Shown: in pieces, positions 3,205 to 27,253 of the stretch
Layout: every line of letters starts with the position of its first letter
Numbering within the stretch: position 1 is the stretch's first letter
Assembly: GCA_016297675.1 (NCBI GenBank)
Contig: JAEDGE010000001.1
Span: 1 to 45,771, forward strand
DNA length: 45,771 bases
Origin: Oscillospiraceae bacterium
Lineage (GTDB): Bacteria > Bacillota > Clostridia > Oscillospirales > Ruminococcaceae
Direction: 5' to 3'
Translations under genes and position numbers: made by a program
The notes under the pieces: model-generated
The model's database searches: none
Told to the model about the DNA's origin: nothing
Seen by the model: only the letters and a program-made list of their open reading frames with translations

Positions 3205-3259
3205 TAAAAACAGGACAAAATAGAATTGAACAGAATGGATAAAAAAGGAGTCGAGGACA

Positions 3260-4219
3260 ATGGCAGGCAAATTTACAATTTCACTGGACAAAATTATCGA
3301 AGCATTTAAACTGGAAACCATTTATACCCCGAAGGATGCTGCTGAGATTCAGATTGATGAAGCAGATGTAACCCGTCCGGGTTTGCAGCTGATGGGGTTT
3401 TATGAGTATTTCAATCCAGAGCGGATTCAGATTATCGGCAAAATGGAATTTGCCTATCTTTCTACCATTGATGAGGAAACCAGAATACAGCGGTTGGATA
3501 TGTTGTTTTCACAGCGGATTCCAGCACTGGTCATTTCCAGAGAGTTGCCGTATTTTGAAGAAATGCTGGATCTTGCAAAGAAATATTCCGTACCATTGCT
3601 TCGTAGCAAAGAGAGTACTTCTAATTTCATTGCTGGTTTGATTGCTTTTTTAAATTTAAATCTTGCACCACGTATCACAAGACATGGTGTTTTGATTGAG
3701 ATTTATGGCGAAGGTGTATTTATTACAGGTGAAAGTGGTGTTGGAAAGAGCGAAACTGCAATTGAATTGGTAAAGCGTGGGCATCGCTTGGTTGCAGATG
3801 ATGCGGTAGAAATCAGAAAAGTTTCCAACATCAGTTTGGTTGGTAGTTCACCGGATAACATTCGGCACTTTTTGGAACTGCGTGGTATTGGCATTATCAA
3901 TGCACGTCGTCTGTTTGGTATTGGTGCTGTTAAGAATACAGAAAAAATTGAATTGATTGTAGAGATGGAACAGTGGAATCCAGAAAAAATCTATGACCGG
4001 ATGGGTGTGGATACACAGTATGTCTCTCTACTTGGTGTAAAAGTGCCATCTTTGACGATTCCGGTACGACCTGGCAGAAATCTGGCAGTGATTTTGGAAG
4101 TTGCTGCTATGAACAATCGACAGAAGAAGATGGGGTATAATGCCGCTTCTGATTTGTTGGATCATTTGGGTTTGGATATGGAATCAAAAGAAGTGATTAA
4201 GGATTACGATGCATTTTAA
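3260..4219 (+). CDS. hprK: HPr(Ser) kinase/phosphorylase
   Basis: Motifs RPGLQLMG, HGVLIEIYGEGV, Walker A GESGVGKSE, LVADD, LELRGIGII, PVRPGRN. Confidence 0.98.
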   Translation: MAGKFTISLDKIIEAFKLETIYTPKDAAEIQIDEADVTRPGLQLMGFYEYFNPERIQIIGKMEFAYLSTIDEETRIQRLDMLFSQRIPALVISRELPYFEEMLDLAKKYSVPLLRSKESTSNFIAGLIAFLNLNLAPRITRHGVLIEIYGEGVFITGESGVGKSETAIELVKRGHRLVADDAVEIRKVSNISLVGSSPDNIRHFLELRGIGIINARRLFGIGAVKNTEKIELIVEMEQWNPEKIYDRMGVDTQYVSLLGVKVPSLTIPVRPGRNLAVILEVAAMNNRQKKMGYNAASDLLDHLGLDMESKEVIKDYDAF

Positions 4220-7196: not shown

Positions 7197-10100
7197 ATTT
7201 GTACATTTGCATGTACATAGTGTTTATAGTTTACTGGATGGGGCTTGTCGGATTCCAGAGATGATGGAGCAGGTCAAAGCGATGGGACAAACTGCCATTG
7301 CTTTGACAGATCATGGGAATTTATATGCGGCTGTTTCATTTTACAGAGCAGCCAAAAAAGTAGGATTACATCCTATTATTGGCTGTGAGGTCTATGTTGC
7401 CAGCCGTACACGTTTCGACCGTGTGCAGGCATTGGATCGAAAACGATATCACCTTGTTCTGCTGTGTGAAAATCAGACTGGTTATCGGAACTTGGTAAAG
7501 CTTGTTTCACAAGCGTGCTTAGAAGGGTTTTATCAAAAACCCCGTGTAGACTGGGAATTGCTTTCGCAGTATCACGAGGGTTTAATTTGTCTGTCTGCTT
7601 GTTTAGCTGGCGAAGTGCCGCAGTTGCTGCTTGCTGGAAACTATGAACAGGCAAAACAGACCGCACTGCGGTATCAGGCACTATTCGGCAAGGACAATTA
7701 TTATTTAGAAGTGCAGAATCACGGTTTGCAAGAACAGAAGACGATATTGCCACTGCTCTATCAGCTTTCACAAGAAACGGGAATCTCCTTGGTGGCTACC
7801 AATGATGCTCATTATCTGACACAGGATGAGGCAGAAATGCAGCAGGTCTTACTCTGTATTCAAACTGGTAAAACGATAGACGATCCCACAGCAATGCGGT
7901 TTGAAACAAATGAATTTTACCTGAAAAGTACACAGGAAATGCAGCAGCTATTTTCTGCTATGCCAGAGGCAATTATAAATACCAAGCGAATTGCAGATCG
8001 TTGTCATGTGACATTTGAAACTGAGAAGCTGCATTTACCATCCTTTTTTATGGATGGTGTGACAGATAATGTTGCGTTATTTGCTGACCTTTGTCAAAAA
8101 GGGATGCAGAAACGATATGGAACGCCTGTGCCGGAGCATGTTCAGAAGCGACTACAGCATGAAATGGATGTCATCACACAGATGAATTATGTGGATTACT
8201 TTCTGATTGTATGGGATTATGTGAATTTTGCAAAGCAGCATCAAATTCCGGTTGGACCGGGCAGAGGTTCGGGAGCTGGGAGTCTTTGTGCTTATTGTAT
8301 GGGAATCACAGAGATTGACCCGATTGCCTATCATTTATTGTTTGAACGGTTTTTAAATCCGGAACGTGTGAATATGCCAGATTTTGATATTGATTTCTGT
8401 ATTGAGGGCAGACAAGCAGTAAAAGAATATGTGATTCAAAAATACGGAGCAGATCGTGTAACAGAAATCATTACATTTGACTTGATGAAAGCCAGAGGAG
8501 CGGTACGAGATGTCGGAAGAGCATTGAATCTTCCCTATGCCCTCTGTGATCGTATTGCAAAAAAAATCGATCCACATCGTACCATTGCAGAAACGATGGC
8601 AGCCCCAGGGGAAATGGAGTTGCAGCAACTTTATCAAACAGACAGCAATGTCAAAAAGCTGTTGGATATGGCACAAAAAATAGAGGGGATGCCACGACAT
8701 ACCTCTACGCATGCAGCTGGCGTCATTATTTCTGCTGTCCCATTATTAGAAATGGTGCCGCTGCAAAAAAATGATGATACCATTGTAACGCAGTATCCAA
8801 TGGGTACATTAGAATATCTGAAATTAGTCAAGTTTGACTTTTTAGGCTTGCGAAATCTGACGATTATTCGAGATTGCGTTCGGATGATTCATGAAGCAGA
8901 ACCAGAATTTTCGATTCATCACATTCCAATTGATGATGCGGCAGTATATCGTATGATGGCAAAGGGTGACACGATGGGCGTATTTCAATTTGAAAGTGCC
9001 GGTATGCGTCATGTGTTATTGCAAATGCAGCCGGAACAACTGGAAGATTTGACAGCAGCCCTTTCTTTATACCGTCCGGGGCCAAGAGATTCCATCCCAC
9101 AGTATCTGGAGAATCGCAAACATCCTGATACAATTTCTTATGCACATCCTTCATTAAAACCAATCTTAGAAGTAACATATGGTTGTATGGTCTATCAAGA
9201 ACAAGTCATGGAAATTTGCCGAGCACTGGCGGGGTATTCTTATGGCAGAGCCGATATTGTCAGACGAGCGATGTCTAAAAAAGATCAGGCGGTAATGGAG
9301 CAGGAACGAGAGATCTTTCTATATGGTTTAGAAGATGTCTGCTGCGGAGCCATTCAAAATGGTGTTCCAAAAGAAGTAGCAGAATCTATTTTTGATGAAA
9401 TCAGCCGTTTTGCCTCTTATGCATTCAATAAATCTCATGCAGTTGCCTATGCTTATCTGGCATATCAAACAGCTTATCTGAAATGTCATTATTTTTCTGC
9501 CTATATGGCAGCGTTGATGACCAGTGTGATAGGGGATTTTCCGAAACTTCTGTCCTATATCTCAGAATGTCAAAAAGCAGGCGTAGCGGTATTGCCGCCA
9601 CACATCAATGAAAGTCATGCAGTTTTTACCTGTACCAAAAAAGGCATTCGCTTTGGGTTGTCTGCGGTCAAGAATGTTGGCGTGGCTTTGATTGAAAAGC
9701 TGGAACGGGAACGGCAGAGAAATGGCTTGTTCAAAAACTTGTATGATTTTTGTCAGCGAATGCAGGGAATCGAATTGAATAAGCGAGCCTTAGAAAGTCT
9801 GATTCAAAGCGGTGCACTGGATGGATTGGGATGGAATCGGCGGCAAATGCTTCAACAATATGAACAAATTTTATCATCTGTAAAAGAAATGGCTGCCTCC
9901 CAATTAACAGGACAAATGCAGCTATTTGGTATGGTATCAACAAGCAGCTGGCAGGAACCAATGCCAGAGCCAGTGGAAGAATTTTCTCAGACAGAATTGC
10001 TGCATATGGAACGCGAAGTCACTGGCATGTATATTTCTGGGAATCCGTTGCAGCCAGTACAGTATCTTTGTCGTTTGTTGCATACAACTACCGCATCCGT

Positions 10101-10611
10101 GCTTTCTTCCTCACCTGACCAAATGAAAATTTGCATCATTGGTGTATTGCAACAAATGAAAGCACATTTGACAAAAAGCAATGAGCGAATGTGTTTCTTT
10201 CAATTGGAGGACTTGACAGGAGCAGTTGATTGCATTGCTTTTCCAGCAGTTTTTCGTGCTGTCCAACAAAAGCTACAGGTAGATTCTATTTTGTGGTGCA
10301 AAGGAACACTTTCTATCAAAGAAAGTGGTGTTTCCATTTTGTGTGACAGTATTTTGACATTAGAAGAATTGCAAAAACAGGTGGAACAAGGACGGTTTTG
10401 TATAAAATTAGATTCTACGGATACAATGCGTATGCAGCAAGCATTGCAAACGGCAGCCGCCTATGCAGGAAATACAAATATTTGCTTTTACTTTACAGAT
10501 CAAAAACGAATGGTACAACCAAAACAAAAGGTGAAAATGGCAGTAACAGAAAAAAGTGAGCAGGCTTTTCTACAATTTTTTTCCAGTTCAGAGCTGGGAA
10601 TTTTAAAGTAA
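7174..10611 (+). CDS. dnaE: DNA polymerase III alpha subunit
   Basis: PHP domain (HLHVHSVYSLLDG, TDHGN), GPGRGSGAGS, PDFDIDF, KFDFLGL, YAFNKSHA and a C-terminal OB fold. Start moved to ATG 7174, which follows AAGGAG. Confidence 0.97.
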   Translation: MPEIKQDEFVHLHVHSVYSLLDGACRIPEMMEQVKAMGQTAIALTDHGNLYAAVSFYRAAKKVGLHPIIGCEVYVASRTRFDRVQALDRKRYHLVLLCENQTGYRNLVKLVSQACLEGFYQKPRVDWELLSQYHEGLICLSACLAGEVPQLLLAGNYEQAKQTALRYQALFGKDNYYLEVQNHGLQEQKTILPLLYQLSQETGISLVATNDAHYLTQDEAEMQQVLLCIQTGKTIDDPTAMRFETNEFYLKSTQEMQQLFSAMPEAIINTKRIADRCHVTFETEKLHLPSFFMDGVTDNVALFADLCQKGMQKRYGTPVPEHVQKRLQHEMDVITQMNYVDYFLIVWDYVNFAKQHQIPVGPGRGSGAGSLCAYCMGITEIDPIAYHLLFERFLNPERVNMPDFDIDFCIEGRQAVKEYVIQKYGADRVTEIITFDLMKARGAVRDVGRALNLPYALCDRIAKKIDPHRTIAETMAAPGEMELQQLYQTDSNVKKLLDMAQKIEGMPRHTSTHAAGVIISAVPLLEMVPLQKNDDTIVTQYPMGTLEYLKLVKFDFLGLRNLTIIRDCVRMIHEAEPEFSIHHIPIDDAAVYRMMAKGDTMGVFQFESAGMRHVLLQMQPEQLEDLTAALSLYRPGPRDSIPQYLENRKHPDTISYAHPSLKPILEVTYGCMVYQEQVMEICRALAGYSYGRADIVRRAMSKKDQAVMEQEREIFLYGLEDVCCGAIQNGVPKEVAESIFDEISRFASYAFNKSHAVAYAYLAYQTAYLKCHYFSAYMAALMTSVIGDFPKLLSYISECQKAGVAVLPPHINESHAVFTCTKKGIRFGLSAVKNVGVALIEKLERERQRNGLFKNLYDFCQRMQGIELNKRALESLIQSGALDGLGWNRRQMLQQYEQILSSVKEMAASQLTGQMQLFGMVSTSSWQEPMPEPVEEFSQTELLHMEREVTGMYISGNPLQPVQYLCRLLHTTTASVLSSSPDQMKICIIGVLQQMKAHLTKSNERMCFFQLEDLTGAVDCIAFPAVFRAVQQKLQVDSILWCKGTLSIKESGVSILCDSILTLEELQKQVEQGRFCIKLDSTDTMRMQQALQTAAAYAGNTNICFYFTDQKRMVQPKQKVKMAVTEKSEQAFLQFFSSSELGILK

Positions 10612-10638
10612 ATAGAAAATAAAATAGAGGGATTTATA

Positions 10639-12723
10639 ATGAAAGTACATAAAACATGGAATGGCATCATCGGTTTTTTGACAGCTTGCTGCTGTCTTGT
10701 TTCAGGAAGTGGACTATCAGTAGTTGCAGAGGATGCAGTAACAACTTTGACAGTAGAAGAACCGATCGCAGCAGAAATTCTTTCAGAAGGAACACCATCA
10801 ACAGAAGAAACAGAATCACCCACAACTACCACCGCACCGACCACAACAGAAACAACGGTAGAAACAACAGAAACCATCTCTGAAGGTTTGGATGATGAAG
10901 CCATTACATTGGGAGATTTAAACGGAGATGGTGCGGTGAGTGTGGAGGACGCAGTATTTGTATTGACCATTTACGCAAAACAATCTGCTGGATTGGAAGT
11001 AAATCTTTCTTCGCAGCAATTTTTCTGTTTGGATTGTGACCATGATACAAGAATCAGTGTAGAAGACGCTGTTTTGATTTTAGAGTATTATGCAAAACAT
11101 GCAGCTTGTTTAGTAACAGGAACATTTTCCGAATATGTGGACGAGAAACAGAATCCAGTTACAACAACAACTGTTCCAGAACTAACAACGCTACCAGAAA
11201 CCAGTACAGAAATTACAACAGAAACGACAACAAAAAACACTTTGCCGACAACAGACACAACGGAAGATACCACACAGGATACAACAACTGTCGTGATCCC
11301 TTCTGATTTTTCAGACAGCTATGCAGGTTCTTATCTTGTAACTGCTTCTGCTCTGAATCTGAGAAGCGATCCGTCCACCTCTTCTTCTGTTATCACAGTG
11401 ATTCCGAATAATGCAACGGTAACTGTGACAATGGGAAACGGAGCGTGGGCAGCCGTAACGTATGAGGGCAAGAACGGTTACTGCTCGATGGATTATCTGA
11501 CACTTGTACCGGATACCACAACAGTACCGGAAGAAACCACAACGACTACCACTGAAACAACCACTACTACCACTACTACGACCACAACGACTGCTGTGCC
11601 AAATTCTGTAAAGCTTCCGGTTAATTGTATTTTGCAGAATGCATCGCCATCTTTGCCAACTGGTTGTGAGGCAACTGCATTGACAATTGCACTCAATTAT
11701 GATGGATTTACAGCGAAAAAAACAAATATTGCCAAAATATATTTACCAAAAATGGTATTTTATACGTTGAATGATATTTATTATGGTGCAGATTTTCAGT
11801 ATGTATTTCCAGGGGATCCAACGACTTCCTATGGATATGGTTGTTATGCACCAGCAATTGTTGCGACTGCAAATGCGTATTTTACCGCACAGAAAAATGC
11901 TTCTTATGCAGAAAATATCAGTGGGACTTCTTTCTATGATCTTTTTCCATATTTAGCAGCAGGTAGACCCATTGTTTTCTGGGGAACAATGAATATGTGT
12001 GCACCCGGAACCGGCGGCAGCTGGACCACGCCAGATGGGGAAACTGTTACATGGAAAAGTAATGAGCATTGTTTGGTTTTGACTGGATATAATAAATCTG
12101 CTGGAACGGTACAGGTTGCAGACCCATTGAGGGGCAATGTTTCCTATGATATGGAATTGGTTGCACAGCGATATACACAAATGGGAAAACAGGCTGTTGT
12201 TTTGCATAGTACCAGTCAGTCGAAAACAGAAACGCTAGGTGTTACCAATGGCGGTGTTTATCGTTTGCGAAATGCTGGAAGTGGTCTGTATTTGACGGTT
12301 GCAGGTGGTATGGATGTTGATGGAACAAACTTGATTCAGGACACAGCAAACGGGACTGCTTCACAAAAATTCCGCATTTCTTACGATACAAGCAGCAATA
12401 CATATCGGTTATATGCAATGTGTTCTTCTGATGGAACCAATCGTGTTGTAGATATTGTAAAACTGGGCGGCGGAATTGCCAGCGGCTGTAATGTGGAAAT
12501 TTATCGACCAGTAGATGCCCCAGCACAAACATTTGTATTGAGTCCACAGTCTGATGGAACGATGTTGTTATCTTGCAGTGCCAATCGCAGTGCATGCCTG
12601 TCTGTTTGGAATCAAGCCACAGGTTCTAATTATGATACAGGCTTTTATGCAAGTGGAAATGTTGTCATTCGCAACGATATTGGAGATGACTTACAGCGTT
12701 GGATATTAGAACCTGTTTCTTGA
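10639..12723 (+). CDS. Secreted modular protein: dockerin, SH3b, C39-like cysteine peptidase and ricin-type domain
   Basis: Signal peptide; duplicated Ca-binding repeats GDLNGDGAVSVEDA / DCDHDTRISVEDA; SH3b 'ALNLRSDPS...WAAVTYEGKNGYCSMDYL'; C39-like 'PTGCEATAL', 'EHCLVLTGY', 'ADP'; ricin-like 'YRLRNAGSGLYL...SQKF...QRW'. Confidence 0.85.
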   Translation: MKVHKTWNGIIGFLTACCCLVSGSGLSVVAEDAVTTLTVEEPIAAEILSEGTPSTEETESPTTTTAPTTTETTVETTETISEGLDDEAITLGDLNGDGAVSVEDAVFVLTIYAKQSAGLEVNLSSQQFFCLDCDHDTRISVEDAVLILEYYAKHAACLVTGTFSEYVDEKQNPVTTTTVPELTTLPETSTEITTETTTKNTLPTTDTTEDTTQDTTTVVIPSDFSDSYAGSYLVTASALNLRSDPSTSSSVITVIPNNATVTVTMGNGAWAAVTYEGKNGYCSMDYLTLVPDTTTVPEETTTTTTETTTTTTTTTTTTAVPNSVKLPVNCILQNASPSLPTGCEATALTIALNYDGFTAKKTNIAKIYLPKMVFYTLNDIYYGADFQYVFPGDPTTSYGYGCYAPAIVATANAYFTAQKNASYAENISGTSFYDLFPYLAAGRPIVFWGTMNMCAPGTGGSWTTPDGETVTWKSNEHCLVLTGYNKSAGTVQVADPLRGNVSYDMELVAQRYTQMGKQAVVLHSTSQSKTETLGVTNGGVYRLRNAGSGLYLTVAGGMDVDGTNLIQDTANGTASQKFRISYDTSSNTYRLYAMCSSDGTNRVVDIVKLGGGIASGCNVEIYRPVDAPAQTFVLSPQSDGTMLLSCSANRSACLSVWNQATGSNYDTGFYASGNVVIRNDIGDDLQRWILEPVS
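11515..11593 (+). repeat. Low-complexity ACN codon run encoding a poly-Thr linker
   Basis: accacaacgactaccact...accactactaccactactacgaccacaacgact, translating to long T runs between the SH3b and peptidase domains. Confidence 0.8.
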
Positions 12724-12744
12724 GTATGATTTTTAAATTTTTAC

Positions 12745-12773
12745 TTGACAAACTGCATGATGTCTGTTATAAT
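12745..12773 (+). promoter_or_regulatory. Consensus sigma-A promoter with extended -10, driving the MTase-TetR/cob cluster
   Basis: TTGACA (12745-12750), 17 bp spacer, TGtTATAAT (-10 hexamer at 12768-12773). Confidence 0.88.
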
Positions 12774-12798
12774 GATAGTGAACAAACGTTCACCATCA
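12773..12798. promoter_or_regulatory. Palindromic operator, probable TetR-family binding site
   Basis: TGATaGTGAAC-aaac-GTTCACcATCA lies over the expected transcription start, between the -10 box and the RBS. Confidence 0.72.
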
Positions 12799-12813
12799 GA
12801 AAGGGGCTTGAAA

Positions 12814-14280
12814 ATGAAAAAGACATCTTCCAGTATGACCGCTAAAATGTCTGCTTTTGCGAGAGCATATTATGCAGAACATGCAAAGAAACCTGCTTTT
12901 GAGGATGCAATTGCAAAGAAACTATTTCAGAATACAGAGTATCAGGATATGCAGAATATGTTGCAAGACGGTGCTGCTTTTTTTGGAATGGCATCAGATG
13001 CACAGGTGACACAAAGAGATTGTGTATGGGAAATTGTAAAAAATCAGATGGCACCGATTCCAGTTGCGCGTGCACGATATTGTGAAGATTGTCTGCAAAC
13101 AGAAATCCAAACTGGTACAAAACAGTATGTGATTTTAGGAGCTGGGTATGATACTTTTGCATGGCGGCATCCGGAATACCTACAAAAAATCACAGTTTTT
13201 GAAGTAGATCAAGCAGAAACACAAGATGAAAAAAAACAGAGACTTTTACAAGCAGGATTGCCGCTTCCTTCTCAGTTGCATTTTGTGCCAGTGGATTTTC
13301 GTTCTGGTCATTTGCAGCAGCAGTTAGTACAGTGTGGGTTTGATGTGACCCAAAAGACATTTTTCAGTTTGTTAGGAGTAAGCTATTATTTAACAGAAAC
13401 AGAAATAGAAAGACTGCTCACTGAAATTTCTGCTTTCGCAGCAGAAGGCAGTACATTGGTTTTTGATTATGCAGATGCACATCTGTTTCAAACGAACTCC
13501 ATACGAATACGGCGGATGCTTGCATTGGCGGAAGCAAGCGGAGAACCAATGCAATTTTGCAGCAATGCGATGCATTTAACAAAAATATTGGAAGCCTCTC
13601 ATTTTCTGATTTATGAGATGCTTTCTCCAGAGGAAATGCAGGAACGGTATTTGCAAAACAGTGAACTTGTTTCTTTTTCTAATATTCACTATGTTACTGC
13701 AACAATAAAAGGGACAGCCTTTTTGCATACGAAAGAAAAAATTCTGCAAGTTTCTCTCAAACAATTTTCCCAAAGAGGATTTGATGCTGTTTCTGTGAGA
13801 GAAATTGCGGGGGAACTTGGCTTGACACAATCGGCACTCTATAAGCATTATGAAAATAAGCAAGCCATTTTTGAAGCGTTGCTGAAACGGGCAGAAGCGG
13901 TTTTGCCAAAGACCATGATTGCAAAAATGGATACGGTGGAAAGCATACAAGCCTCTATTATAAGCTGGTTTTCTATTTGGACAGAAAACGCTTTTGGTAC
14001 TGCATTTCGGCAAATGATTAATATGGAACGTTATCATAATCCAGCAGCGGAACAGCAGTATGCAGATTATTTTTTACATCAACCGCTTGCAGACTGTACG
14101 CTGCTAATGCAAAAACTGGGAATCACGGCAGCAGAAGAAACGGCAAATTCTTTTTATGCAGAAATCTTTTTTCTGCTGTATGCTTATGATATTGCATCTC
14201 AGAAGAAAATTGTATTAGAACAGCTGCAATCTTATGTGAGTCGCTTTTTCACTTCGAAATTACAGAACAGGGAAGGATGA
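12814..14280 (+). CDS. Fusion of a class I SAM-dependent methyltransferase (LCM/YktD-like) and a TetR/AcrR family regulator
   Basis: N-terminal 'TAKMSAFARAY', 'ARARYCED', 'QYVILGAGYDTFAWR', 'VFEVDQ', 'VPVDF', 'LGVSYYL'. C-terminal HTH 'TKEKILQVSLKQFSQRGFDAVSVREIAGELGLTQSALYKHYENKQAIF' from about 13726. Single open frame. Confidence 0.88.
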   Translation: MKKTSSSMTAKMSAFARAYYAEHAKKPAFEDAIAKKLFQNTEYQDMQNMLQDGAAFFGMASDAQVTQRDCVWEIVKNQMAPIPVARARYCEDCLQTEIQTGTKQYVILGAGYDTFAWRHPEYLQKITVFEVDQAETQDEKKQRLLQAGLPLPSQLHFVPVDFRSGHLQQQLVQCGFDVTQKTFFSLLGVSYYLTETEIERLLTEISAFAAEGSTLVFDYADAHLFQTNSIRIRRMLALAEASGEPMQFCSNAMHLTKILEASHFLIYEMLSPEEMQERYLQNSELVSFSNIHYVTATIKGTAFLHTKEKILQVSLKQFSQRGFDAVSVREIAGELGLTQSALYKHYENKQAIFEALLKRAEAVLPKTMIAKMDTVESIQASIISWFSIWTENAFGTAFRQMINMERYHNPAAEQQYADYFLHQPLADCTLLMQKLGITAAEETANSFYAEIFFLLYAYDIASQKKIVLEQLQSYVSRFFTSKLQNREG

Positions 14281-15689
14281 AAGAGATCATGCAGAAATTT
14301 GTTTCTGTTCCTCGCCTGCTCCTTAGTGCCACTGGCAGCGACAGCGGAAAAACCACCATGGTGTTGGCTTTGTTGGCAGCGTTTCGTCAGAAAAATATTT
14401 CTGTACAGAGTTACAAAAGCGGACCGGATTACATTGATCCGATGTTTCATGAAAAAGTGACAAGACGTCCTGTTTACCATACCGATCCTTTTTTCTTACA
14501 GCAAGATGCAATGCAGCAACTGATTGCACAAACAGCACAACACGAAGATCTTGCTTTAATAGAGGGGGCGATGGGGTTTTATGACGGTATTGGACAAACG
14601 TCAGAAGCCAGTGCCTATACTGTTTCACAATGGCTGCAAACGCCAACTGTATTGGTTGTGAATCCGAAGAAAATGGGACGTTCTGTCGCTGCGATTTGTA
14701 ACGGTTTTTTGCATCTGGAACAGAATCATCTGATAAAAGGATTCCTATTGAATCGTGTCCGAAGCAGCATGGCATCCTATTATCAGGAAATCATTGAACG
14801 AGAAACCGGTTTACCGGTATATGGCTTTTTACCGGAATTGCCGTCTGTGCAGTTGCCGAGCCGTCATCTGGGTCTGCTGACCGCATCAGAAATTGCACAG
14901 TTGGATGAAAAAATAAAGCTGCTTGCTGATACGGCACAAAAAACGATTGCATGGGAGGCATTATTAGAATTGGCAGCAACAGCACCTCCGCTGCCGTTGA
15001 AAGAGAGAATTTTGCCCCATTCCGAACCGTTTCGACTTGGTATTGCAGAGGATGCTGCCTTTTGTTTTTATTATGCGGAAAATTTAGAAATGCTACGAGA
15101 ATGCGGGGCAGAATTGGTTTCCGTTTCGCCTCTTACAGATGTTGTCTTGTCGGAAGATTTAGATGGTCTCTATCTGGGCGGCGGTTATCCGGAACTATAT
15201 TTGCCACAGCTCAGCAGCAATCGTTCTTTTATACAAAGTTTGAGAACTGCTGCGAAGAAAAACCTGCCGATTTTTGCAGAGTGCGGTGGATTTCTATACT
15301 TGCTGCAAGCAATTTCTGATGCAGCTGGTATCTCCTACCCGATGGCAGAACTGCTTTCCGGTACGGCTGCCATGCAGAAGCAGCTTTGCCGGTTTGGATA
15401 TCTTACATTAACTGCACAGCAGGATACCATTTTAGCAGAAAAAGGGACACGGATTCAGGCACATAGTTTTCACTATGCAGACAGTACGGAAAATGGAACG
15501 GCTTTTTTAGCAGAACGTCCAAACGGAAAACAGTGGCAGGAAATACAGCAACAGGGCTCTATTTTGGCGGGGTTTCCGCATTGGTATTTTCCATCCAATC
15601 CTCATGTTCCACAGCGGTTTGCAGAACAGTGCATTGTCTATCGAAAAAGACGTATGCAGGAAGCAGGTGATCTGTCATGCAGATTTTAA
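14277..15689 (+). CDS. cbiA: Cobyrinate a,c-diamide synthase (CbiA/CobB)
   Basis: Motifs SDSGKTT, KSGPDYIDPMFH, EGAMGFYDG, SRHLGL, GGGYPEL, AECGGF. Confidence 0.95.
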   Translation: MKEIMQKFVSVPRLLLSATGSDSGKTTMVLALLAAFRQKNISVQSYKSGPDYIDPMFHEKVTRRPVYHTDPFFLQQDAMQQLIAQTAQHEDLALIEGAMGFYDGIGQTSEASAYTVSQWLQTPTVLVVNPKKMGRSVAAICNGFLHLEQNHLIKGFLLNRVRSSMASYYQEIIERETGLPVYGFLPELPSVQLPSRHLGLLTASEIAQLDEKIKLLADTAQKTIAWEALLELAATAPPLPLKERILPHSEPFRLGIAEDAAFCFYYAENLEMLRECGAELVSVSPLTDVVLSEDLDGLYLGGGYPELYLPQLSSNRSFIQSLRTAAKKNLPIFAECGGFLYLLQAISDAAGISYPMAELLSGTAAMQKQLCRFGYLTLTAQQDTILAEKGTRIQAHSFHYADSTENGTAFLAERPNGKQWQEIQQQGSILAGFPHWYFPSNPHVPQRFAEQCIVYRKRRMQEAGDLSCRF

Positions 15690-16219
15690 TTTCGGGTGGT
15701 TCTGCCAGCGGAAAGTCACAGCTGGCGGAACAGCTTGCTGTGAACCGAAGCCAGACACCGCTTTACTATTTTGCAACCATGCAGATATGGGATGCAGAGT
15801 GTGCAGAGCGAGTAACACAGCATCGCAGACAGCGTACTGGAAAGGGATTCCAAACCATAGAAGTACCAGACCATCTGCTGCAAACTGCACAATCCCTGCC
15901 AACAGGTGGCTGCGGTCTATTGGAATGTGTCAGTAATCTGCTCTCCAACGAACAATTTTGTGTACAGCAAACACATCCGGCAGAGATAATTTTAGATGGT
16001 ATTGCAGCTCTGCACAACCATTTAGACACTTTGGTGATTGTGACAAATGAAGTCTTTACAGACCGAGTGCCACAGGATGCCGCTATGCAGGCATATTTAC
16101 AGCAGCTTGGACGAATCAACTGTACTCTGGCAGAGCGTTCGGAAATTGTCATAGAAGTTTGTAGCGGTATCCCTGTCTGCTGGAAAGGAGCAGCCTTGTT
16201 TCATGAAATCCTATCTTGA
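15677..16219 (+). CDS. cobU: Adenosylcobinamide kinase / cobinamide-phosphate guanylyltransferase (CobU family)
   Basis: P-loop GGSASGKS, YFATM, RVTQHRRQR, ECVSNLLSNE, VTNEV. Confidence 0.9.
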   Translation: MQILISGGSASGKSQLAEQLAVNRSQTPLYYFATMQIWDAECAERVTQHRRQRTGKGFQTIEVPDHLLQTAQSLPTGGCGLLECVSNLLSNEQFCVQQTHPAEIILDGIAALHNHLDTLVIVTNEVFTDRVPQDAAMQAYLQQLGRINCTLAERSEIVIEVCSGIPVCWKGAALFHEILS

Positions 16220-16976
16220 ATCTCTTCTCATTGCACTCTCCATGTACAGTACCCTTCCGGTGAAGTGTCTGAACTGGAATGCGAAAAATCTGCGTCATGC
16301 TATGTTATTTTTTCCGATAGTCGGTTTACTTTGCGGCGGAGCTCTCTGGTTGGTTTGGACAGGTTGTCAGCTGTTGGATTGCTCTGCTTTTTTATTTGCA
16401 GTGCTTGCTGCATTGGTAAATGTATTGATTACAGGGGGGATTCATCTGGATGGATTTTGCGATACTGCCGATGCCTTGTATTCCCGTCGACCGATGGAAG
16501 AGAAACTGCGAATTTTGAAAGACCCAAACTGTGGACCCTTTGCGGTATTTAGTGTTGTATTGATATTGTTGGTACAGGTTGCTGCTTATGCACAGATTTA
16601 TACAACACAAACCAGATGGGCAGTGGGTCTGCTCACGGGTGGCTTTTGGATTGCTCGCTGTTTGAGCGGTATTTCTGTCACACGCTTTCCTTGTACACCA
16701 ACCAGTTCCCTTGCGAAGACCTTTGGCGAACATGCAGGAAAGTATGTTGGGACAGGACTAATGATTTTGACTGGACTTGCAATGGCAGTTCTGGTAATAT
16801 TTTATCAATGGATGGCTGTTGTTTCCATTTTTTTATCTTTACTTGTTTTTCTGGGATATTATCATATGCAAAAAACACAATTTGGCGGTGTAACAGGGGA
16901 TTTAGCTGGTTTTTTTCTTGTGATTTGTGAAACAATATGGTTATTGAGTTACGCAATGTTAGGAGATGTGTTGTAA
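16203..16976 (+). CDS. cobS: Adenosylcobinamide-GDP ribazoletransferase (cobalamin synthase)
   Basis: Multi-TM protein with FFPIVG, TGGIHLDGFCDTADA, ILKDP, FGGVTGDLAG. Confidence 0.95.
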   Translation: MKSYLESLLIALSMYSTLPVKCLNWNAKNLRHAMLFFPIVGLLCGGALWLVWTGCQLLDCSAFLFAVLAALVNVLITGGIHLDGFCDTADALYSRRPMEEKLRILKDPNCGPFAVFSVVLILLVQVAAYAQIYTTQTRWAVGLLTGGFWIARCLSGISVTRFPCTPTSSLAKTFGEHAGKYVGTGLMILTGLAMAVLVIFYQWMAVVSIFLSLLVFLGYYHMQKTQFGGVTGDLAGFFLVICETIWLLSYAMLGDVL

Positions 16977-17377
16977 TGAAACTTGTCATTGGCGGTTATG
17001 CACAGGGACGGCTTGCCTATGTATTGCAGCAGTATGAGAAACAAACGGAAGATGTTTTTGATTTGGCAGAGCATTCTATTTTTGAATGGAACAGGCAAAC
17101 GATATTATACCATATGGAAGAACTGGCAACGCAGGCAGAGCAGGAAAGTCAATCTGTATTTGATTGGCTGGAAAGATACCTACCGTTATGGAACGATTGT
17201 ATTTTAATTACACAGGAAGTCGGATGTGGATTGGTTCCAATTACACCGGAAGAACGACAATGGCGGGAAACTGTTGGACGTATGAATATATGGTTGGCGG
17301 CACAAGCTGAAACAGTAGAACGGATTTTCTGCGGACTGTCTATGCAGCTTTTCCCTTCATCAGGTGGTGTAGTGTAA
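16976..17377 (+). CDS. Short CobU-family paralog
   Basis: Starts MKLVIGGYAQGR; contains EVGCGLVP...ERQWRETVGR and VERIFCGL. The ATG overlaps the cobS stop (TAATG). Confidence 0.8.
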   Translation: MKLVIGGYAQGRLAYVLQQYEKQTEDVFDLAEHSIFEWNRQTILYHMEELATQAEQESQSVFDWLERYLPLWNDCILITQEVGCGLVPITPEERQWRETVGRMNIWLAAQAETVERIFCGLSMQLFPSSGGVV

Positions 17378-18348
17378 TGATACAGTTAAGTATATGCAGT
17401 GTTTTACTTGGGGTACTCTTAGACTTTTGTTTTGGGGATCCGCACTGGATGCCTCATCCAGTTGTTTGGATGGGAAAAGGGATTTCTTTCGGGGAAAAGA
17501 AGCTGCGGCAGTGTTTCCCGAAAACAGAGCGAGGGACATTTATAGCAGGTATTTTTTTAGCGGTATTGTTGCCGCTGATAAGTTTTGGGATTTCCTCATT
17601 GGTGCTTTGGATTGCATATCGGATTTCAGTCTGGCTTTGGTTTCTGATTCACACATTCTGGAGTTATCAGATATTAGCAGCTCGTTGCCTTGCAACAGAG
17701 AGCAGTAAGGTTTACCGTGCGTTACAGGCAAATAATTTACCGCTTGCCCGCAAGCAGCTTTCTTGGTTGGTTGGTCGGGAGACAAAAGACCTTTCTGTTG
17801 AAGAAGTTACAAAAGCATGCGTGGAAACCGTTGCAGAAAATACATCGGATGGTGAAATTGCACCTTTATTTTATCTTTTGATTGGTGGTGTACCGCTTAG
17901 CTTTTTTTATAAAGCAGTAAACACATTGGATTCCATGGTTGGATATCGGAATGAAACTTATGAATACTTTGGAAAAGCCTCGGCAAAGCTGGATGATATT
18001 TGCAACTGGATTCCAGCAAGACTTTCTGCATGGTTTCTTATAGCTGCATCTTTTTTGCTTTCACTGGATGGAAAAGGGGCTTTGCGAATTTACTTTCGGG
18101 ACAGGCGGAAGCATCTATCTCCGAACTCCGCCCAGACTGAATCCGTAGCAGCAGGAGCAATGAGTATCCAGCTTGGGGGAACACATATATATTTTGGAAA
18201 CATAGTGGAAAAACCGACCATTGGTGATGCCATCAGAGCAGCAAAAGCAGAAGATATTCAAACAGCAAATAAAATGCTGTTTGTTGCCAGCATTTTATTT
18301 GCTGTTGTTGTCGGAGGTGGTATGCTGCTTGTTGCTATTATCCTATAA
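17377..18348 (+). CDS. cbiB: Adenosylcobinamide-phosphate synthase CbiB
   Basis: Motifs GDPHWMPHPV, LVGRET, ETVAENTSDG, YKAVNTLDSMVGY, PARL, SPNS. Confidence 0.96.
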   Translation: MIQLSICSVLLGVLLDFCFGDPHWMPHPVVWMGKGISFGEKKLRQCFPKTERGTFIAGIFLAVLLPLISFGISSLVLWIAYRISVWLWFLIHTFWSYQILAARCLATESSKVYRALQANNLPLARKQLSWLVGRETKDLSVEEVTKACVETVAENTSDGEIAPLFYLLIGGVPLSFFYKAVNTLDSMVGYRNETYEYFGKASAKLDDICNWIPARLSAWFLIAASFLLSLDGKGALRIYFRDRRKHLSPNSAQTESVAAGAMSIQLGGTHIYFGNIVEKPTIGDAIRAAKAEDIQTANKMLFVASILFAVVVGGGMLLVAIIL

Positions 18349-18368
18349 AATGTTGGGAGGAGAACTGC

Positions 18369-19469
18369 TTGAAGTCGATACACGGTGGTGATATTTACAC
18401 TGCGAAGGAACGGCTGCACAGTGACCAGCTACTTGATTTTTCTGCGAATATCAATCCCTTTGGTGTACCAGATTGTGTGCAATCCGCAATTTGTGCAGCA
18501 ATTCCGCAATTGTCACACTATCCTGACCCGAATCAAACCATGCTGACCAATGCCCTTGCTGCGTATCATCATGTACAATCACAGCAGATTATCTGCGGAA
18601 ATGGCGGTGCAGATGTATTATTCCGGACAGTACAGGCGATTCATCCAAAACATGTAGTTATTCCGGTTCCGACTTTTTCCGAGTATGGAAAAGCCTTAGA
18701 GGAGAATGGCTGTTCCGTCACATACTGGAAGATGCCAGAACCATTCGTTTTGACAGAATCTTTCCTGACAGAACTGCAAACGGGAAAATATGATTTTCTG
18801 GTACTCTGCAATCCCAACAATCCCACTGGTTCGCTGCTCTCTACTTCGTTGCTGCAAAAAATCCTGACACTTACTGTACAGAAAAAAATCTTTGTTTTAC
18901 TGGATGAATGCTGTTGCGATATGACAGAAACAGCACTTCAATCTTCTATGATTGCTACTTGTAACGATTATCCGAATCTATTCATTCTAAAGTCCATGAC
19001 AAAACGATATGCGATTCCGGGTTTACGGTTGGGATATGGAATTTGTGCGAATACAGCGTTAGCAGAACAAATCCGGCAGACGGGACAGCCGTGGTCAGTC
19101 AATACGCTGGCATCCGTTGCAGGCTGTGCTGCGTTGCAGGATATTGCCTATCAACAGCAGTTTCAGCAGTTCCTACAGACTGAGCGATGGTTTCTTTATC
19201 ACGCATTGCAGGAGCTGGGATTTACAGTTTGGGAACCAGCAGCGAATTTCGTATTTTTTCATGCAAAACAGTTTTATGATTTAGAGAATGAATTATTACC
19301 CTATCATATTCTTCTGCGGAACTGTGGGAATTATCGTGGTTTGGATGATACCTATTATCGGGTTGCAGTGCGGAAACGAGAGGAAAATATATTTTTATTG
19401 CAATGTCTGAAAGAAATTGTACAGAAAAAGTCAGGAGGGAATCTATGCGAGCAAAATCTATCATGGTAG
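18369..19469 (+). CDS. cobD: L-threonine-O-3-phosphate decarboxylase (PLP-dependent)
   Basis: TTG start after GGGAGG; motifs HGGD, DFSANINP, YPDP, GNG, PTFSEY, CNPNNPTG, SMTKRYAIPGLRLGY. Confidence 0.92.
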   Translation: MKSIHGGDIYTAKERLHSDQLLDFSANINPFGVPDCVQSAICAAIPQLSHYPDPNQTMLTNALAAYHHVQSQQIICGNGGADVLFRTVQAIHPKHVVIPVPTFSEYGKALEENGCSVTYWKMPEPFVLTESFLTELQTGKYDFLVLCNPNNPTGSLLSTSLLQKILTLTVQKKIFVLLDECCCDMTETALQSSMIATCNDYPNLFILKSMTKRYAIPGLRLGYGICANTALAEQIRQTGQPWSVNTLASVAGCAALQDIAYQQQFQQFLQTERWFLYHALQELGFTVWEPAANFVFFHAKQFYDLENELLPYHILLRNCGNYRGLDDTYYRVAVRKREENIFLLQCLKEIVQKKSGGNLCEQNLSW

Positions 19470-20965
19470 TTGGAACCATGTCTTCTGCCGGAAAAAGTGT
19501 GATAACAGCCGGACTTTGTCGTATTTTTCAGCAAGACGGCTTGCGAACGGCACCATTTAAGTCACAAAATATGGCACTCAATTCCTATATTACAAGAGAT
19601 GGATTAGAAATGGGACGAGCACAGGTTATGCAGGCGGAAGCTGCTGGTGTAGAGCCAGATGTCCGGATGAATCCGATTTTGCTCAAACCCACCAGTGAAT
19701 TCGGTTCACAGGTAATCGTGAATGGAGAAGTATATGGTAGCATGCATGCAAGAGAATACTATCAGCAGAAACAAAAGCTTATTCCTGTTATTCAGCAGGC
19801 ATATGAATCCCTTGCAGCTGAAAAGGATATCATCGTACTGGAGGGAGCAGGTAGTCCGGCAGAAATCAATTTACGAGATGTAGATATTGTGAATCTGGGC
19901 ATGGCAGCGATTTCTGACTCTCCTGTCATTTTAGTGGGGGATATTGACCGAGGTGGTGTTTTCGCAGCTATTTACGGAACGATTGCCCTATTGCGTCCAG
20001 AAGAACGCCGCCGAATAAAGGGAATCATCATCAATAAATTTCGTGGAGATGTCAGTATTTTGGAAAGCGGTTTAACTATGCTGGAAGAACTGACTGGCGT
20101 TCCCATTTTGGGGGTTGTTCCCTATTTACCGTTGCATTTGGAAGAGGAAGACAGCCTTGCGACTCAATTGCATCAGCATACACGATTGCCAGAAAGCAGC
20201 TTGGATATAGCAGTCATTCGGTTCCCACACATTTCTAATTTTACAGACTTTACAGCACTGGATGGAATGGATACTGTTTCTGTTCGCTATGTTACCAGTG
20301 TACAAATGTTAGGAGAACCAGATTTACTGATTCTGCCGGGTACGAAGAATACATTATCAGATTTGCGATGGCTACGGCAAAACGGATTAGAGGCAGCAAT
20401 TCAAAAATTACATCAAAAAGGTTGTGTTTTATTTGGTATTTGTGGCGGATTCCAAATGATGGGCAATCTGATTTCAGATCCATATGGTGTAGAAGACGGT
20501 GGGAGTCTGCGTGGTATGGAGCTATTGGATATAGAAACGATTTTTCAGACACAAAAGTACCGTCAGCAAGTACAAGGCAGCATTTGCACAATTCCTGGCA
20601 TATTGCAATCCCTTTCGGGATATCCGGTCAATGGTTATGAAATACATATGGGAGAAACCATTGTTCATACAGCAAATCCATTTACCAAGCGGGAAGATGG
20701 TACATACAACGGATACTGTAATCCAGACGGTAATGTGTATGGAACCTATTTGCATGGTATTTTTGATACAACAGAAACCACTGCATATCTGGTGCAGCAG
20801 CTGCTCCGACAAAAAGGTTTAGAAAATCCCGTGCCTTTTTTGGATTTGCAGCAAAGAAAAGAACAGCAATATGATATGTTGGCAGACACCTTGCGAAAGC
20901 ATCTGAATATCAAACAAATCTACAAAATAATAAATGAATGGGGACAAACACATGAAACCACTTAG
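19445..20965 (+). CDS. cbiP: Cobyric acid synthase (CbiP/CobQ)
   Basis: Motifs GTMSSAGKS, PFKSQNMALNS, EGAGSPAEINL, DIDRGG, NKFRGD, GICGGFQM, GYEIHMG, GTYLHG. Start at ATG 19445 after GGAGG. Confidence 0.97.
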   Translation: MRAKSIMVVGTMSSAGKSVITAGLCRIFQQDGLRTAPFKSQNMALNSYITRDGLEMGRAQVMQAEAAGVEPDVRMNPILLKPTSEFGSQVIVNGEVYGSMHAREYYQQKQKLIPVIQQAYESLAAEKDIIVLEGAGSPAEINLRDVDIVNLGMAAISDSPVILVGDIDRGGVFAAIYGTIALLRPEERRRIKGIIINKFRGDVSILESGLTMLEELTGVPILGVVPYLPLHLEEEDSLATQLHQHTRLPESSLDIAVIRFPHISNFTDFTALDGMDTVSVRYVTSVQMLGEPDLLILPGTKNTLSDLRWLRQNGLEAAIQKLHQKGCVLFGICGGFQMMGNLISDPYGVEDGGSLRGMELLDIETIFQTQKYRQQVQGSICTIPGILQSLSGYPVNGYEIHMGETIVHTANPFTKREDGTYNGYCNPDGNVYGTYLHGIFDTTETTAYLVQQLLRQKGLENPVPFLDLQQRKEQQYDMLADTLRKHLNIKQIYKIINEWGQTHETT

Positions 20966-22034
20966 AGAGGGGCATACCACGGGTGTCTGTGCAGCAGCTG
21001 CTGCATTGGCATCTGTATTGTGGCAGACAACAGGACGATGTCCGGAACAGGTTGCCTATACGTTGCCTTCTGGAAAAACACTTTCTCTGCCGATAGAAGC
21101 AGCAGAAGCATATATATGTGGTGTACGGAAAGACAGCGGTGATGATCCCGATCAGACAAATGGATGTTTGGTTTGTGCGACGGTACAGATTTTGGAAGAT
21201 GAAGGTGCCATCTGTTTTCAAGCTGGAAAGGGCGTTGGGACAGTAACCCGAAAGGGGCTTCCAATTCCAGTAGGAGAACCAGCAATCAATCCCATTCCAC
21301 GGGAGATGATTATAAAAGCAGTCCGTTCTGTCATTGGCACACGCGGTGCAGTGGTAACTATTTCTGTACCCGAGGGAGAACGGATTGCAGAACGCACATT
21401 TAATGGTCGACTTGGTATTGTTGGTGGCATTTCTATTCTTGGGACGACTGGTATTGTTCGTCCAATGAGTGAGGAAGCTATACGGGAATCCTTGCGAATG
21501 GAATTATCTATGTGTCGTGCAGAATATGGGACTGCCTGTGCAATGGTAACAGGGTATGCTGGAGAAAGTTATTTGAAAAAACGGTTCACAGATGGCGGCA
21601 GTATTATATTGTGCAGCAATTATTTAGGTTATCTGCTTGACTGTGCGGAAGAGATGGGAATGCAAACGATTCTGCTTACTGGTGCTGCAGGAAAACTTAT
21701 CAAACCCGCAGCAGATATTATGTATCTGCACAGCCATACAGCAGGCGGACAACGAGAAATCATTTGTACACATGCTGCTCTTGCAGGTGCTTCAATGGAA
21801 CAGGTACAGCAGCTGTATCATTGTAATACGACTGTAGAAATGCAAGAACGATTGTCCAGAATGCCGTTTGCAGAAACCGTCTGGAAGCAAATTACTGAAT
21901 CAGTTTGTAAAAATTGTGAAAGAAGAACGCATTTTCATATTAAAATAGGAGTGATTTTGTTGGATCGGGAGCAGCATGTATTAGCAGAAACGGCATCTGT
22001 ATCGGATGTATTAAAGGAGTGGCGAAGACATTGA
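20952..22034 (+). CDS. cbiD: Cobalt-precorrin-5B C1-methyltransferase
   Basis: Motifs LREGHTTGVCAAAAA, KDSGDDPDQT, GKGVGTVTRKGL, TFNGRLGIVGGISILGTTGIV. Confidence 0.95.
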   Translation: MKPLREGHTTGVCAAAAALASVLWQTTGRCPEQVAYTLPSGKTLSLPIEAAEAYICGVRKDSGDDPDQTNGCLVCATVQILEDEGAICFQAGKGVGTVTRKGLPIPVGEPAINPIPREMIIKAVRSVIGTRGAVVTISVPEGERIAERTFNGRLGIVGGISILGTTGIVRPMSEEAIRESLRMELSMCRAEYGTACAMVTGYAGESYLKKRFTDGGSIILCSNYLGYLLDCAEEMGMQTILLTGAAGKLIKPAADIMYLHSHTAGGQREIICTHAALAGASMEQVQQLYHCNTTVEMQERLSRMPFAETVWKQITESVCKNCERRTHFHIKIGVILLDREQHVLAETASVSDVLKEWRRH

Positions 22035-23245
22035 GGAATCCGTTATGGCTGGTTGGTGGTGGTAGTGGAAATCCGGACTATTTATTACCAGTTGCAAAAA
22101 AAACATTGGAGCAAGCAGATTGTGTCATTGCTTCTCAACGATTTGGAAAGATGTTATCTGTCAAGAAATTTTTACCGTTGATTGACCTTTCCAATTTATT
22201 AGAGCAGCTTCCAACTATGCTCGAAGATGAATCCATTGCTATTCTGGTATCAGGAGACCCTTTGCTCTATAGTTTTTACCGTACTATAAAAAATCACTAT
22301 CCGGACTGGCAGATTCCTGTCATTCCTGGTATTGGTTCCTTGCAATTGTTAGGGGCGAAATTTGGTTTGCCAATGGAGCAGGCATATATTTGCAGTTTAC
22401 ACGGGAAATCTTATACAGCTGGTTCGATTGCCTATGCAGTGACACAGCATTCTCTGACGCTTTTTTTCTGTTCAGCAACAGACGGTGTGAGAGAGATTGC
22501 AAACGCACTTTGCTCTTATGGATTAGAGGACACAACGTTATTTATCGGTGCAAATCTGACTTATGAAACAGAACAGCTCTGGAAGGGAGAACCAAAGCAG
22601 TTTTGTGAGATGGAAAATCCTTCTCTTTGTGTGGTTGCTGTATCCAATCCAGCTCCCAAAAAAATTGGGAATATTGCTTTATTGCCAGATATCGCATTTC
22701 TACGAAATAGTGCTCCTATGACAAAAGAAGAAGTTCGTGCTGTGATTCTCAGCAAACTGCAATTACAGCCGGATAGTATAGTATGGGATATTGGTGCAGG
22801 AACAGGTAGTGTTTCCATTTCATGTGCAAAATGCTGTCCATATGGAACCGTATATGCCATTGAGTATCAGGCATCTGCATTGGAAATCCTGAGAAAAAAT
22901 TGCACCTATTTGCAAGCAGAAAATGTAACCATTTTGGCTGGCAGGGCAGAGCAGGTAATGGCTACGCTTCCTGTACCGGATTGTATTTTTATTGGTGGAA
23001 GTGATGGAGCTTGTTCGTCCATTTTGCAGCAAATACAATCTCTTCCGAAAACGGTTCGGCTTGTTGTCAGCAGCGTGACGTTAGAAACGCAGGCAGAATT
23101 GATGACATTGCTGCAAGATATGCCGCAGTTAGAGATCGTACAAATTGCAGTGGGACGCAGTCGGGCAGTGGGAAAATATCATGTATTGGAAAATAATCAT
23201 CCAGTGATGCTGTTTTCCTGTTTAGCAGGAGGAAAGCGAGAATGA
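22031..23245 (+). CDS. cbiET: Fused cobalt-precorrin C5/C15 methyltransferase-decarboxylase CbiET
   Basis: CbiE part (LVSGDPLLY, PGIGSLQ, SLHG) and CbiT part (MTKEEVRAVILSKL, WDIGAGTGSVS). Start is either TTG 22031, which overlaps the cbiD stop, or GTG 22019. Confidence 0.92.
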   Translation: MRNPLWLVGGGSGNPDYLLPVAKKTLEQADCVIASQRFGKMLSVKKFLPLIDLSNLLEQLPTMLEDESIAILVSGDPLLYSFYRTIKNHYPDWQIPVIPGIGSLQLLGAKFGLPMEQAYICSLHGKSYTAGSIAYAVTQHSLTLFFCSATDGVREIANALCSYGLEDTTLFIGANLTYETEQLWKGEPKQFCEMENPSLCVVAVSNPAPKKIGNIALLPDIAFLRNSAPMTKEEVRAVILSKLQLQPDSIVWDIGAGTGSVSISCAKCCPYGTVYAIEYQASALEILRKNCTYLQAENVTILAGRAEQVMATLPVPDCIFIGGSDGACSSILQQIQSLPKTVRLVVSSVTLETQAELMTLLQDMPQLEIVQIAVGRSRAVGKYHVLENNHPVMLFSCLAGGKRE

Positions 23246-23931: not shown

Positions 23932-23966
23932 TTTGGTTAGAAGTCGGAAGGGAGTTCAGATTTAGG

Positions 23967-25723: not shown

Positions 25724-25752
25724 AATCACCAATAGAATGGAGGAAAAATAAA

Positions 25753-27236: not shown

Positions 27237-27253
27237 AAATATTATTAGATTAT

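Follow-up and report, generated by a model that had tools for sequence, protein, structure and literature searches.

A methyltransferase-TetR fusion gene with its own operator ahead of the cob/cbi cluster of an Oscillospiraceae bacterium: a candidate autoregulated cassette and possible promoter capture

The window analyzed here, a 45,771-nucleotide stretch of an Oscillospiraceae bacterium (contig JAEDGE010000001.1, positions 1 to 45,771), carries an open reading frame (ORF) immediately ahead of a 14-gene cob/cbi cluster for cobalamin synthesis. This ORF joins an S-adenosylmethionine (SAM)-dependent methyltransferase domain to a TetR-family repressor. We lean toward the view that positions 12724-14276 form a self-contained, autoregulated enzyme-repressor cassette of 1.5 kb, the promoter of which probably now reads into the cob operon. 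The original prediction had proposed a protein-based regulator of corrinoid synthesis and had considered, as its alternative, that the operon captured the promoter of an unrelated cassette; the alternative fits the comparative data better. The coordinates of the features are collected in Table 1.

The promoter upstream of the fusion gene had been described as a perfect extended sigma-A site, and this description was confirmed at all 12 consensus positions, with the TG dinucleotide present. It is the sole perfect promoter on the 45.8-kb contig, and a scan of positions 10000-29000 returned 45 promoter-like sites among which it alone matched at 12/12. Since the whole genome contains 123 perfect TTGACA-N16-18-TATAAT sites, the fusion promoter is one of 123 and not exceptional for the organism; by our own estimate, ~3 such sites would be expected from the base composition of the genome. 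It is almost certainly a genuine promoter, one among many in the genome. Nearly all of the 123 sites have a 17-nt spacer and 65 carry the extended TG, which makes for an unusually consensus-rich repertoire.

The 26-bp palindrome reported over the start site was likewise recovered, and is referred to as operator O2. It contains a perfect 16-bp palindromic core, GTGAACAAACGTTCAC, at 12778-12793 (GTGAAC-AAAC-GTTCAC; GTGAAC-N4-GTTCAC), and would overlap the transcription start, which is expected near 12780. An exact match to GTGAAC-N4-GTTCAC occurs only once in the 2,126,153-base genome, at 12778, and because the operator motif is unique, the only predicted target of the fusion repressor is the promoter of its own gene, together with anything transcribed from there. 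Sites within two mismatches of the motif number 46 in the same 2.13-Mb genome, which represents the background. The two sites with one mismatch, at position 13952 of contig C107 (where an open frame ends) and at position 5796 of contig C269, were considered as further operator targets and rejected, as neither is promoter-like. The TTG at 12745, which opens the mechanically called ORF, was also rejected as a start codon because it belongs to the -35 box; the real start is the ATG at 12814 behind AAAGGGG.

Sixteen related loci were aligned, comprising 14 fusion loci (L003, L018-L024, L027, and L117-L121), five of which have only ~1.5 kb of flank, and two loci of stand-alone TetR genes (L016 and L017). 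The arrangement TTGACA-17-TATAAT was present in all 16, at 12/12 in 14 loci and at 11/12 in two. In the relatives the 17-nt spacer of the promoter is itself a first operator, O1 (aGTGAAC-N4-GTTTAC; diverged in L003), and the second operator O2 follows 3-13 nt after the -10 box. Two sites within two mismatches of GTGAAC-N4-GTTCAC were found at the promoter in 11 of the 14 fusion loci and at each of the two stand-alone TetR loci, and a further two fusion loci have one such site plus a copy with three mismatches. L003, which is 34% identical, is the sole case among the 14 with no operator site at the promoter. Altogether, the motif stands at the matching promoter position in 13/14 fusion loci and in both stand-alone TetR loci. 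That a TetR protein with such an operator represses its own gene had been anticipated in the original prediction, and the conserved promoter and operator sequences lend strong support to autoregulation of the fusion gene. In the window, the promoter spacer (12751-12767, AACTGCATGATGTCTGT) is without the O1 motif, while the -35 box, the -10 box, their spacing and O2 are retained, which leaves a single operator. With only one of the two operators of the family left, repression may be weaker here than in the relatives, and with the loss of O1 basal expression may be high. At L018, the double-operator promoter (3120-3275) precedes an ORF with an RNHCP domain, which is followed by the fusion gene and a GNAT gene; the first residues encoded behind it are similar to the N-terminal ends of fusion proteins, perhaps as a remnant of a rearrangement.

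The reported combination of an LCM/YktD-like methyltransferase and a TetR domain with an internal helix-turn-helix (HTH) in one ORF was borne out by profile searches. The fusion protein scored 163.1 bits against Pfam LCM (PF04072; cut-off 22.3) over residues 11-205 and 161.6 bits against TIGR00027 (cut-off 93.55) over residues 8-280, covering model positions 2-257 of 259. It scored 53.8 bits against TetR_N (PF00440; cut-off 24) over residues 310-356, the best of six TetR_N matches in the genome. In the same profile search, LCM and TetR_N were the only domains above curated cut-offs, with no B12-binding or other corrinoid-related domain in the protein, and the sole further match was to DUF6262 at 16.6 bits (cut-off 29). 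As the HTH begins at residue 310 of 488, the protein departs from the usual TetR layout of an N-terminal HTH in ~200 residues, while the TetR unit itself (residues 303-488) is of normal size. Residues G109, G111, D113, E130, and D132 are invariant among 32 fusion proteins; we take G109, G111, and D113 (motif I) together with E130 and D132 to belong to the class I SAM-binding motifs. Since these residues do not vary across the fusion family, the methyltransferase looks intact. The best Foldseek matches of the methyltransferase domain were Rv0731c (6id6) and ML2640 (2uyq, with SAM) at E ~1e-13, followed by LCMT1/PPM1 and TYW4. By sequence, too, the domain is nearest to the mycobacterial ML2640 and Rv0731c, and it is 42-49% identical to stand-alone Bacillota proteins of 300 residues.

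An AlphaFold2 (AF2) model built on 32 fusion homologs had a mean predicted local distance difference test score (pLDDT) of 90.1 and a predicted template modeling score (pTM) of 0.63, with both domains modeled confidently. The linker at residues 301-304 fell below a pLDDT of 50 and no confident contact was seen between the domains, so that the model portrays two separately folded parts joined by a short tether. In the TetR part, residues 306-487 form the canonical nine helices, with an all-helical ligand and dimerization domain after the HTH. Stand-alone TetR homologs can be aligned with this part over its entire length, at 33-36% identity, and its C-terminal domain is full-length and conserved. 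A homodimer prediction for the fusion protein gave a score of 0.50 compared with 0.00 for the best of three controls; among proteins of solved structure, 20 of 30 same-chain pairs and 1 of 23 single chains attained this mark. The predicted dimer runs agreed in at least 86% of contacts with a partner pLDDT of at least 85, and the interface consists of TetR residues 319-325 and 400-470 only, to the exclusion of the methyltransferase. The pass in this prediction may express likeness to solved TetR dimers in the structure database rather than new evidence.

Table 1. Positions of the promoter, operator, fusion gene, and cobalamin cluster in the window.
Feature	Position	Strand	Details	Basis
Extended sigma-A promoter	12745-12773	+	-35 TTGACA 12745-12750; 17-nt spacer; TG 12765-12766; -10 TATAAT 12768-12773	12/12 match
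Operator palindrome O2	12773-12798		Arms 12773-12783 and 12788-12798, 11 nt each, 10/11 complementary, 4 nt apart	Inverted repeat
Shine-Dalgarno-like AAAGGGG	12800-12806	+	7 nt before ATG 12814	Read from sequence
Fusion gene (P0001)	12814-14280	+	488 aa; stop 14278-14280	ORF, profile matches, AF2 model
LCM/TIGR00027-type class I SAM methyltransferase domain	12835-13683	+	~Residues 8-290	Pfam LCM and TIGR00027 profiles, Foldseek
Complete TetR-family repressor unit	13720-14277	+	Residues 303-488; HTH residues 310-356 (13741-13881)	TetR_N profile, AF2 model
14-gene cob/cbi cluster	14277-27236	+	cbiA, cobU, cobS, CobU-like ORF, cbiB, cobD, cbiP, cbiD, cbiET, cbiL, cbiF, cbiG, cbiH, cbiJ	
cbiA	14277-15689	+	ATG overlaps fusion TGA (ATGA 14277-14280)	
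cbiJ	26502-27236	+	Last gene of cluster	

The fusion genes of the relatives were then compared for what surrounds them. The original prediction had called for a homolog survey for linkage to cbiA, and in the sample of 14 loci the homologs are never linked to cob genes: a tblastn search with the 14 cob proteins found cob genes near the fusion in 0/14 loci, and its sole match was in L024, to a class I/II aminotransferase that is 31% identical and encoded on the other strand. Downstream of the fusion, a GNAT acetyltransferase gene was found in L018, L021, and L027 and a Methyltransf_11 gene in L019, L023, and L121, while in L117-L120 a convergent gene follows and the cassette is monocistronic. 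The stand-alone TetR genes with the same operators have a GNAT neighbor in L016 and a radical SAM gene in L017. Because GNAT or second methyltransferase partners follow the fusion in relatives, a role in small-molecule modification or detoxification is suggested.

The closest congener, G590, encodes a CbiA that is 85% identical and a homolog of the upstream 694-residue protein that is 83% identical. There the stop of the upstream gene is followed after ~36 bp by cbiA with no fusion gene in between, and no fusion was found anywhere in this 87%-complete genome. Because the same flanks occur in G590 without the fusion, the promoter, the operator, and the fusion gene behave as a single 1.5-kb unit that a genome either has or lacks. 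The upstream 694-residue ORF of the window (10639-12723, forward strand) combines SH3_3, Peptidase_C39-like, and ricin-type lectin domains and is probably secreted or cell-wall-associated; its NCBIfam match to EntFM is weak and lies far below the threshold. At precisely the boundary of the cassette, the C-terminal residues of this ORF are different from those of its G590 counterpart.

In other congeners, too, cbiA is the first gene of the cluster. A match to an adenosylcobalamin (AdoCbl)-type riboswitch lies 60-124 nt upstream of cbiA in three of eight congeners, scoring 51.8 bits in L109 (gathering score 50), 45.4 bits in L104, and 44.0 bits in L105. Two of the three genomes with such a match, G601 and G602, possess the fusion on a different contig from the cob cluster, where it has a double operator of its own. 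In none of the eight congeners does the region upstream of cbiA contain a promoter match above 10/12. In the window, no cobalamin riboswitch (RF00174, RF01482) was found at Rfam gathering scores, and none up to E=10 within 12300-14600. The single cobalamin riboswitch of the genome (RF00174, 99.9 bits) lies at locus L001 (contig C103, 13263-13464, reverse strand) before the gene for the cobalt chelatase CbiK, and for this reason B12 feedback may have been kept at cobalt insertion. Taken together, the comparative evidence suggests that the fusion family is not a family of corrinoid-synthesis regulators, and that the linkage to cob genes seen here is a lineage-specific accident of placement whose regulatory consequences may be real.

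At the junction itself, the reported overlap of the fusion TGA with the cbiA ATG was found as described, and an in-frame ATG at 14289 provides an alternative cbiA start. The fusion gene heads the 14-gene cluster with neither a terminator-like site nor a gap, and the cluster ends at 27236; its genes are tightly packed, with overlaps or gaps of at most 35 nt throughout. A scan of the forward strand from the start of the fusion to beyond the start of cbiA (12814-14425) returned no terminator-like site. With no terminator found and with overlapping stop and start codons, it is probable that transcription of the 14-gene cob/cbi operon is here driven by the fusion promoter as well. RNA-library contigs cover the fusion gene in four runs from three studies. 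The junction is bridged by a clean contig, X14 (386 nt, 14165-14550, three differences), and by a second, oddly structured one, X15 (14236-14328); both are consistent with co-transcription of the fusion and cbiA but not conclusive. No RNA contig covers 12397-12792 and one begins at 12793; as contigs cannot show where a transcript starts, nothing is drawn from this.

From these data, a scheme can be proposed in which the TetR part would dimerize via its last helices, bind O2 across the transcription start, and repress its own gene. A small-molecule ligand in the TetR ligand domain would release the repressor and more fusion protein would be made, and the extra methyltransferase would most likely modify that ligand or a related compound, giving a one-polypeptide sense-and-modify circuit. 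In relatives, the autoregulated cassette would make up the entire circuit, to which an acetyltransferase or a second methyltransferase is added in some loci. Here, relief of repression would increase transcription of the 14 cob genes as well, amounting to promoter capture.

Several points weigh against this cassette reading. The absence of cob genes holds for the 14 loci compared, all of them outside the closest homologs P0002 (99% identity), P0003 (92%), P0004 and P0005 (58-60%), and P0006 (50%). With O1 lost, the promoter may be largely constitutive here. The base composition of the fusion gene (GC 0.393; GC at third codon positions 0.309) is not distinct from that of its neighbors, and thus gives no compositional sign of recent import, while the difference from G590 could be an insertion here or a loss there. 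The RNA-library contigs may stem from contaminating DNA, and a contig bridging two genes does not prove one transcript. Finally, a weaker promoter-like site within the TetR coding region (13822-13851, TTGACA-18-CATTAT, 10/12) could serve cbiA independently. The last point bears on the explanation that fusion and cluster are mere neighbors, in which the cassette would be transcribed alone, the cob operon would use a promoter in the 3' part of the fusion or read-through from upstream, and the repressor would have no real influence on B12 synthesis. Besides the internal site, the G590 cluster speaks for it, as it presumably works with ~36 bp ahead of cbiA and no promoter of at least 10/12 in the 450 nt before it, so that the cob operon of this lineage may be expressed from weak or distant signals anyway. 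We nevertheless consider this explanation unlikely in view of the 4-nt stop/start overlap, the lack of a terminator-like site between the fusion start and cbiA, and the RNA contig across the junction; moreover, with nothing in its way, the extended 12/12 promoter 1.5 kb upstream should prevail over a site that matches at 10/12 and has an 18-nt spacer.

The fusion could also have evolved as a dedicated regulator of cob/cbi that senses a corrinoid, a pathway intermediate, or the balance of SAM and S-adenosylhomocysteine and replaces the riboswitch as a protein feedback device. Its place as first gene of the cluster with overlapping codons would suit such a role, as would the lack of a riboswitch before cbiA here compared with the AdoCbl-type matches in three of eight congeners. 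Many steps of the corrinoid pathway are SAM-dependent methylations, which would make a SAM-binding sensor physiologically plausible, and the closest homologs, at 58-99% identity, lie outside the set of 14 loci. All the same, this origin appears very improbable to us: none of the 14 homolog loci is beside cob genes, in G601 and G602 the fusion and the cob cluster are on different contigs, the neighborhood in the closest congener is the same but without the fusion, stand-alone TetRs with the same operator accompany a GNAT or a radical SAM gene, and the protein has no corrinoid-related domain. The corrinoid-regulator proposal of the original prediction was therefore not upheld. A different question is which part of the protein would do the sensing. 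Binding of substrate, SAM, or both to the methyltransferase domain might move or block the HTH through the tether of ~5 residues, and the very short linker as well as the occurrence of LCM domains fused to MerR, AraC, and XRE/HTH_3 HTHs at the effector-domain position are in line with this. We think it rather improbable, since the full-length, conserved TetR C-terminal domain makes a conventional ligand pocket available, the model (pTM 0.63) has no confident interdomain contact, and no methyltransferase residue lies in the predicted dimer interface.

The methyltransferase-TetR fusion family is small and uncharacterized. A search of 5.8 billion proteins yielded 38 clusters with both Pfam domains at 39-99% identity; those with names are labeled merely 'SAM-dependent methyltransferase' and come from Oscillospiraceae, Ruminococcus, Porcipelethomonas, and Clostridiales assemblies. 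An exhaustive search of 1.84 billion representatives gave about ten full-length fusion representatives among the best 150, and the ESM Atlas holds one cluster of 66 members, both domains being present in 100% of them. A separate ESM Atlas cluster of 74 proteins of ~447 residues combines TetR_N with Methyltransf_11 (score 0.79) and is noted as a lead only. The distribution of the full-length fusion is patchy, with 6/42 genomes of the window's genus, 2/201 sampled genomes of its family, and 1/401 sampled genomes of the order, the last being the window's own genome. A metagenome contig scan with P0001 found only three stand-alone TetR relatives and no locus of a close fusion homolog. In a plasmid search, 0/47 matching records covered at least 80% of the query and all were stand-alone methyltransferases, giving no sign that the fusion is plasmid-borne. 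A tblastn search with the TetR part over the loci examined matched only the nine fusion loci then in the set and four stand-alone TetR loci. No TetR-like match was found beside ~86 stand-alone methyltransferase genes, and an ancestral adjacent pair of methyltransferase and TetR genes was not seen among them. L034, suggested as a split fusion by the tblastn table, was rejected as an LCM gene followed by an AIM24 gene, and L026 as a 300-residue stand-alone gene.

Among the same best 150 representatives, the YktD-like LCM domain also occurs C-terminal to a MerR HTH (P0125, P0141), an AraC HTH (P0104, P0133), XRE/HTH_3 (P0139, P0161), and an SCP2 domain (P0188). In the MerR, AraC, and XRE fusions the domain occupies the place of the effector domain, and these architectures suggest that one-component regulators have taken it up repeatedly, as an effector or a sensor module. 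A bolder version of the proposed scheme, which we advance only tentatively, is that the AdoCbl riboswitch seen before cbiA in some congeners has been replaced by the ligand-responsive fusion and that B12 synthesis is switched by an unrelated small molecule through a one-operator promoter. In this version LCM would be a portable sense-and-modify module on TetR, MerR, AraC, and XRE proteins, an undescribed class of enzyme-regulators.

The fusion shares with the TetR, QacR, AcrR, and MtrR repressors a TetR_N HTH, nine helices, a predicted dimer via the last helices, and a palindromic operator over its own promoter; the solved sequences nearest to its HTH are Mce3R, AcrR, and MtrR. Unlike in these repressors, the HTH is internal behind a 300-residue enzyme, the regulated product is the repressor polypeptide itself, and here a biosynthetic operon follows. 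Profile, fold, and invariant SAM-motif residues are shared with the TIGR00027/LCM methyltransferases (ML2640, Rv0731c, and proteins like YktD of B. subtilis), but these are single-domain proteins with substrates not established, whereas the fusion carries a repressor. In BirA, PutA, and NadR, a catalytic domain likewise shares one polypeptide with a DNA-binding domain, through which the protein controls its own gene or related ones, and the ligand state of the enzyme is known to control DNA binding. No homology to these enzyme-repressors is claimed; both the folds and the DNA-binding families differ. With regard to AdoCbl riboswitch control, which is found in the cbiA leader of three of eight congeners and before cbiK in this genome, a putative protein-controlled promoter stands before cbiA here. 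A literature search found no description of a methyltransferase-TetR fusion and no functional study of YktD/TIGR00027 proteins; what appears new is the enzyme at the N-terminus of a TetR repressor, combined with a promoter that has a defined pair of operators. A TetR-like gene is reported to follow the norcobamide genes of Sulfurospirillum, with nothing to indicate that it regulates them (PMC7755780).

If the cassette reading is true, the locus would represent a testable case of regulatory rewiring, with a 1.5-kb cassette where relatives have nothing or a B12 riboswitch, and a bacterium of the gut or of digesters may be regulating its B12 production by a signal other than B12. It would also provide an enzyme-repressor family with a ready operator consensus, GTGAAC-N4-GTTCAC, two copies of which frame the -10 box of a perfect promoter. 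This consensus would ease the hunt for ligand and substrate by reporter, and a compact inducible switch would be possible. The LCM domain on MerR, AraC, and XRE proteins would then hint at a role in sensing or neutralizing small molecules for the YktD/TIGR00027 proteins, which are widespread yet unstudied.

Some further features of the surroundings were recorded. No cbiC and no uroporphyrinogen methyltransferase gene were seen in the cluster. Between cobS and cbiB, a 146-residue CobU-like ORF (16937-17377, forward strand) matches only positions 97-168 of the 168 of the CobU profile; it is kept at the same position in congeners at 36-78% identity and looks like a truncated or divergent CobU paralogue. 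Beyond the cluster, a lysine riboswitch (RF00168, 101.7 bits) is located at 30655-30827 on the reverse strand, with dapA (28106-28993, reverse strand) downstream of it.

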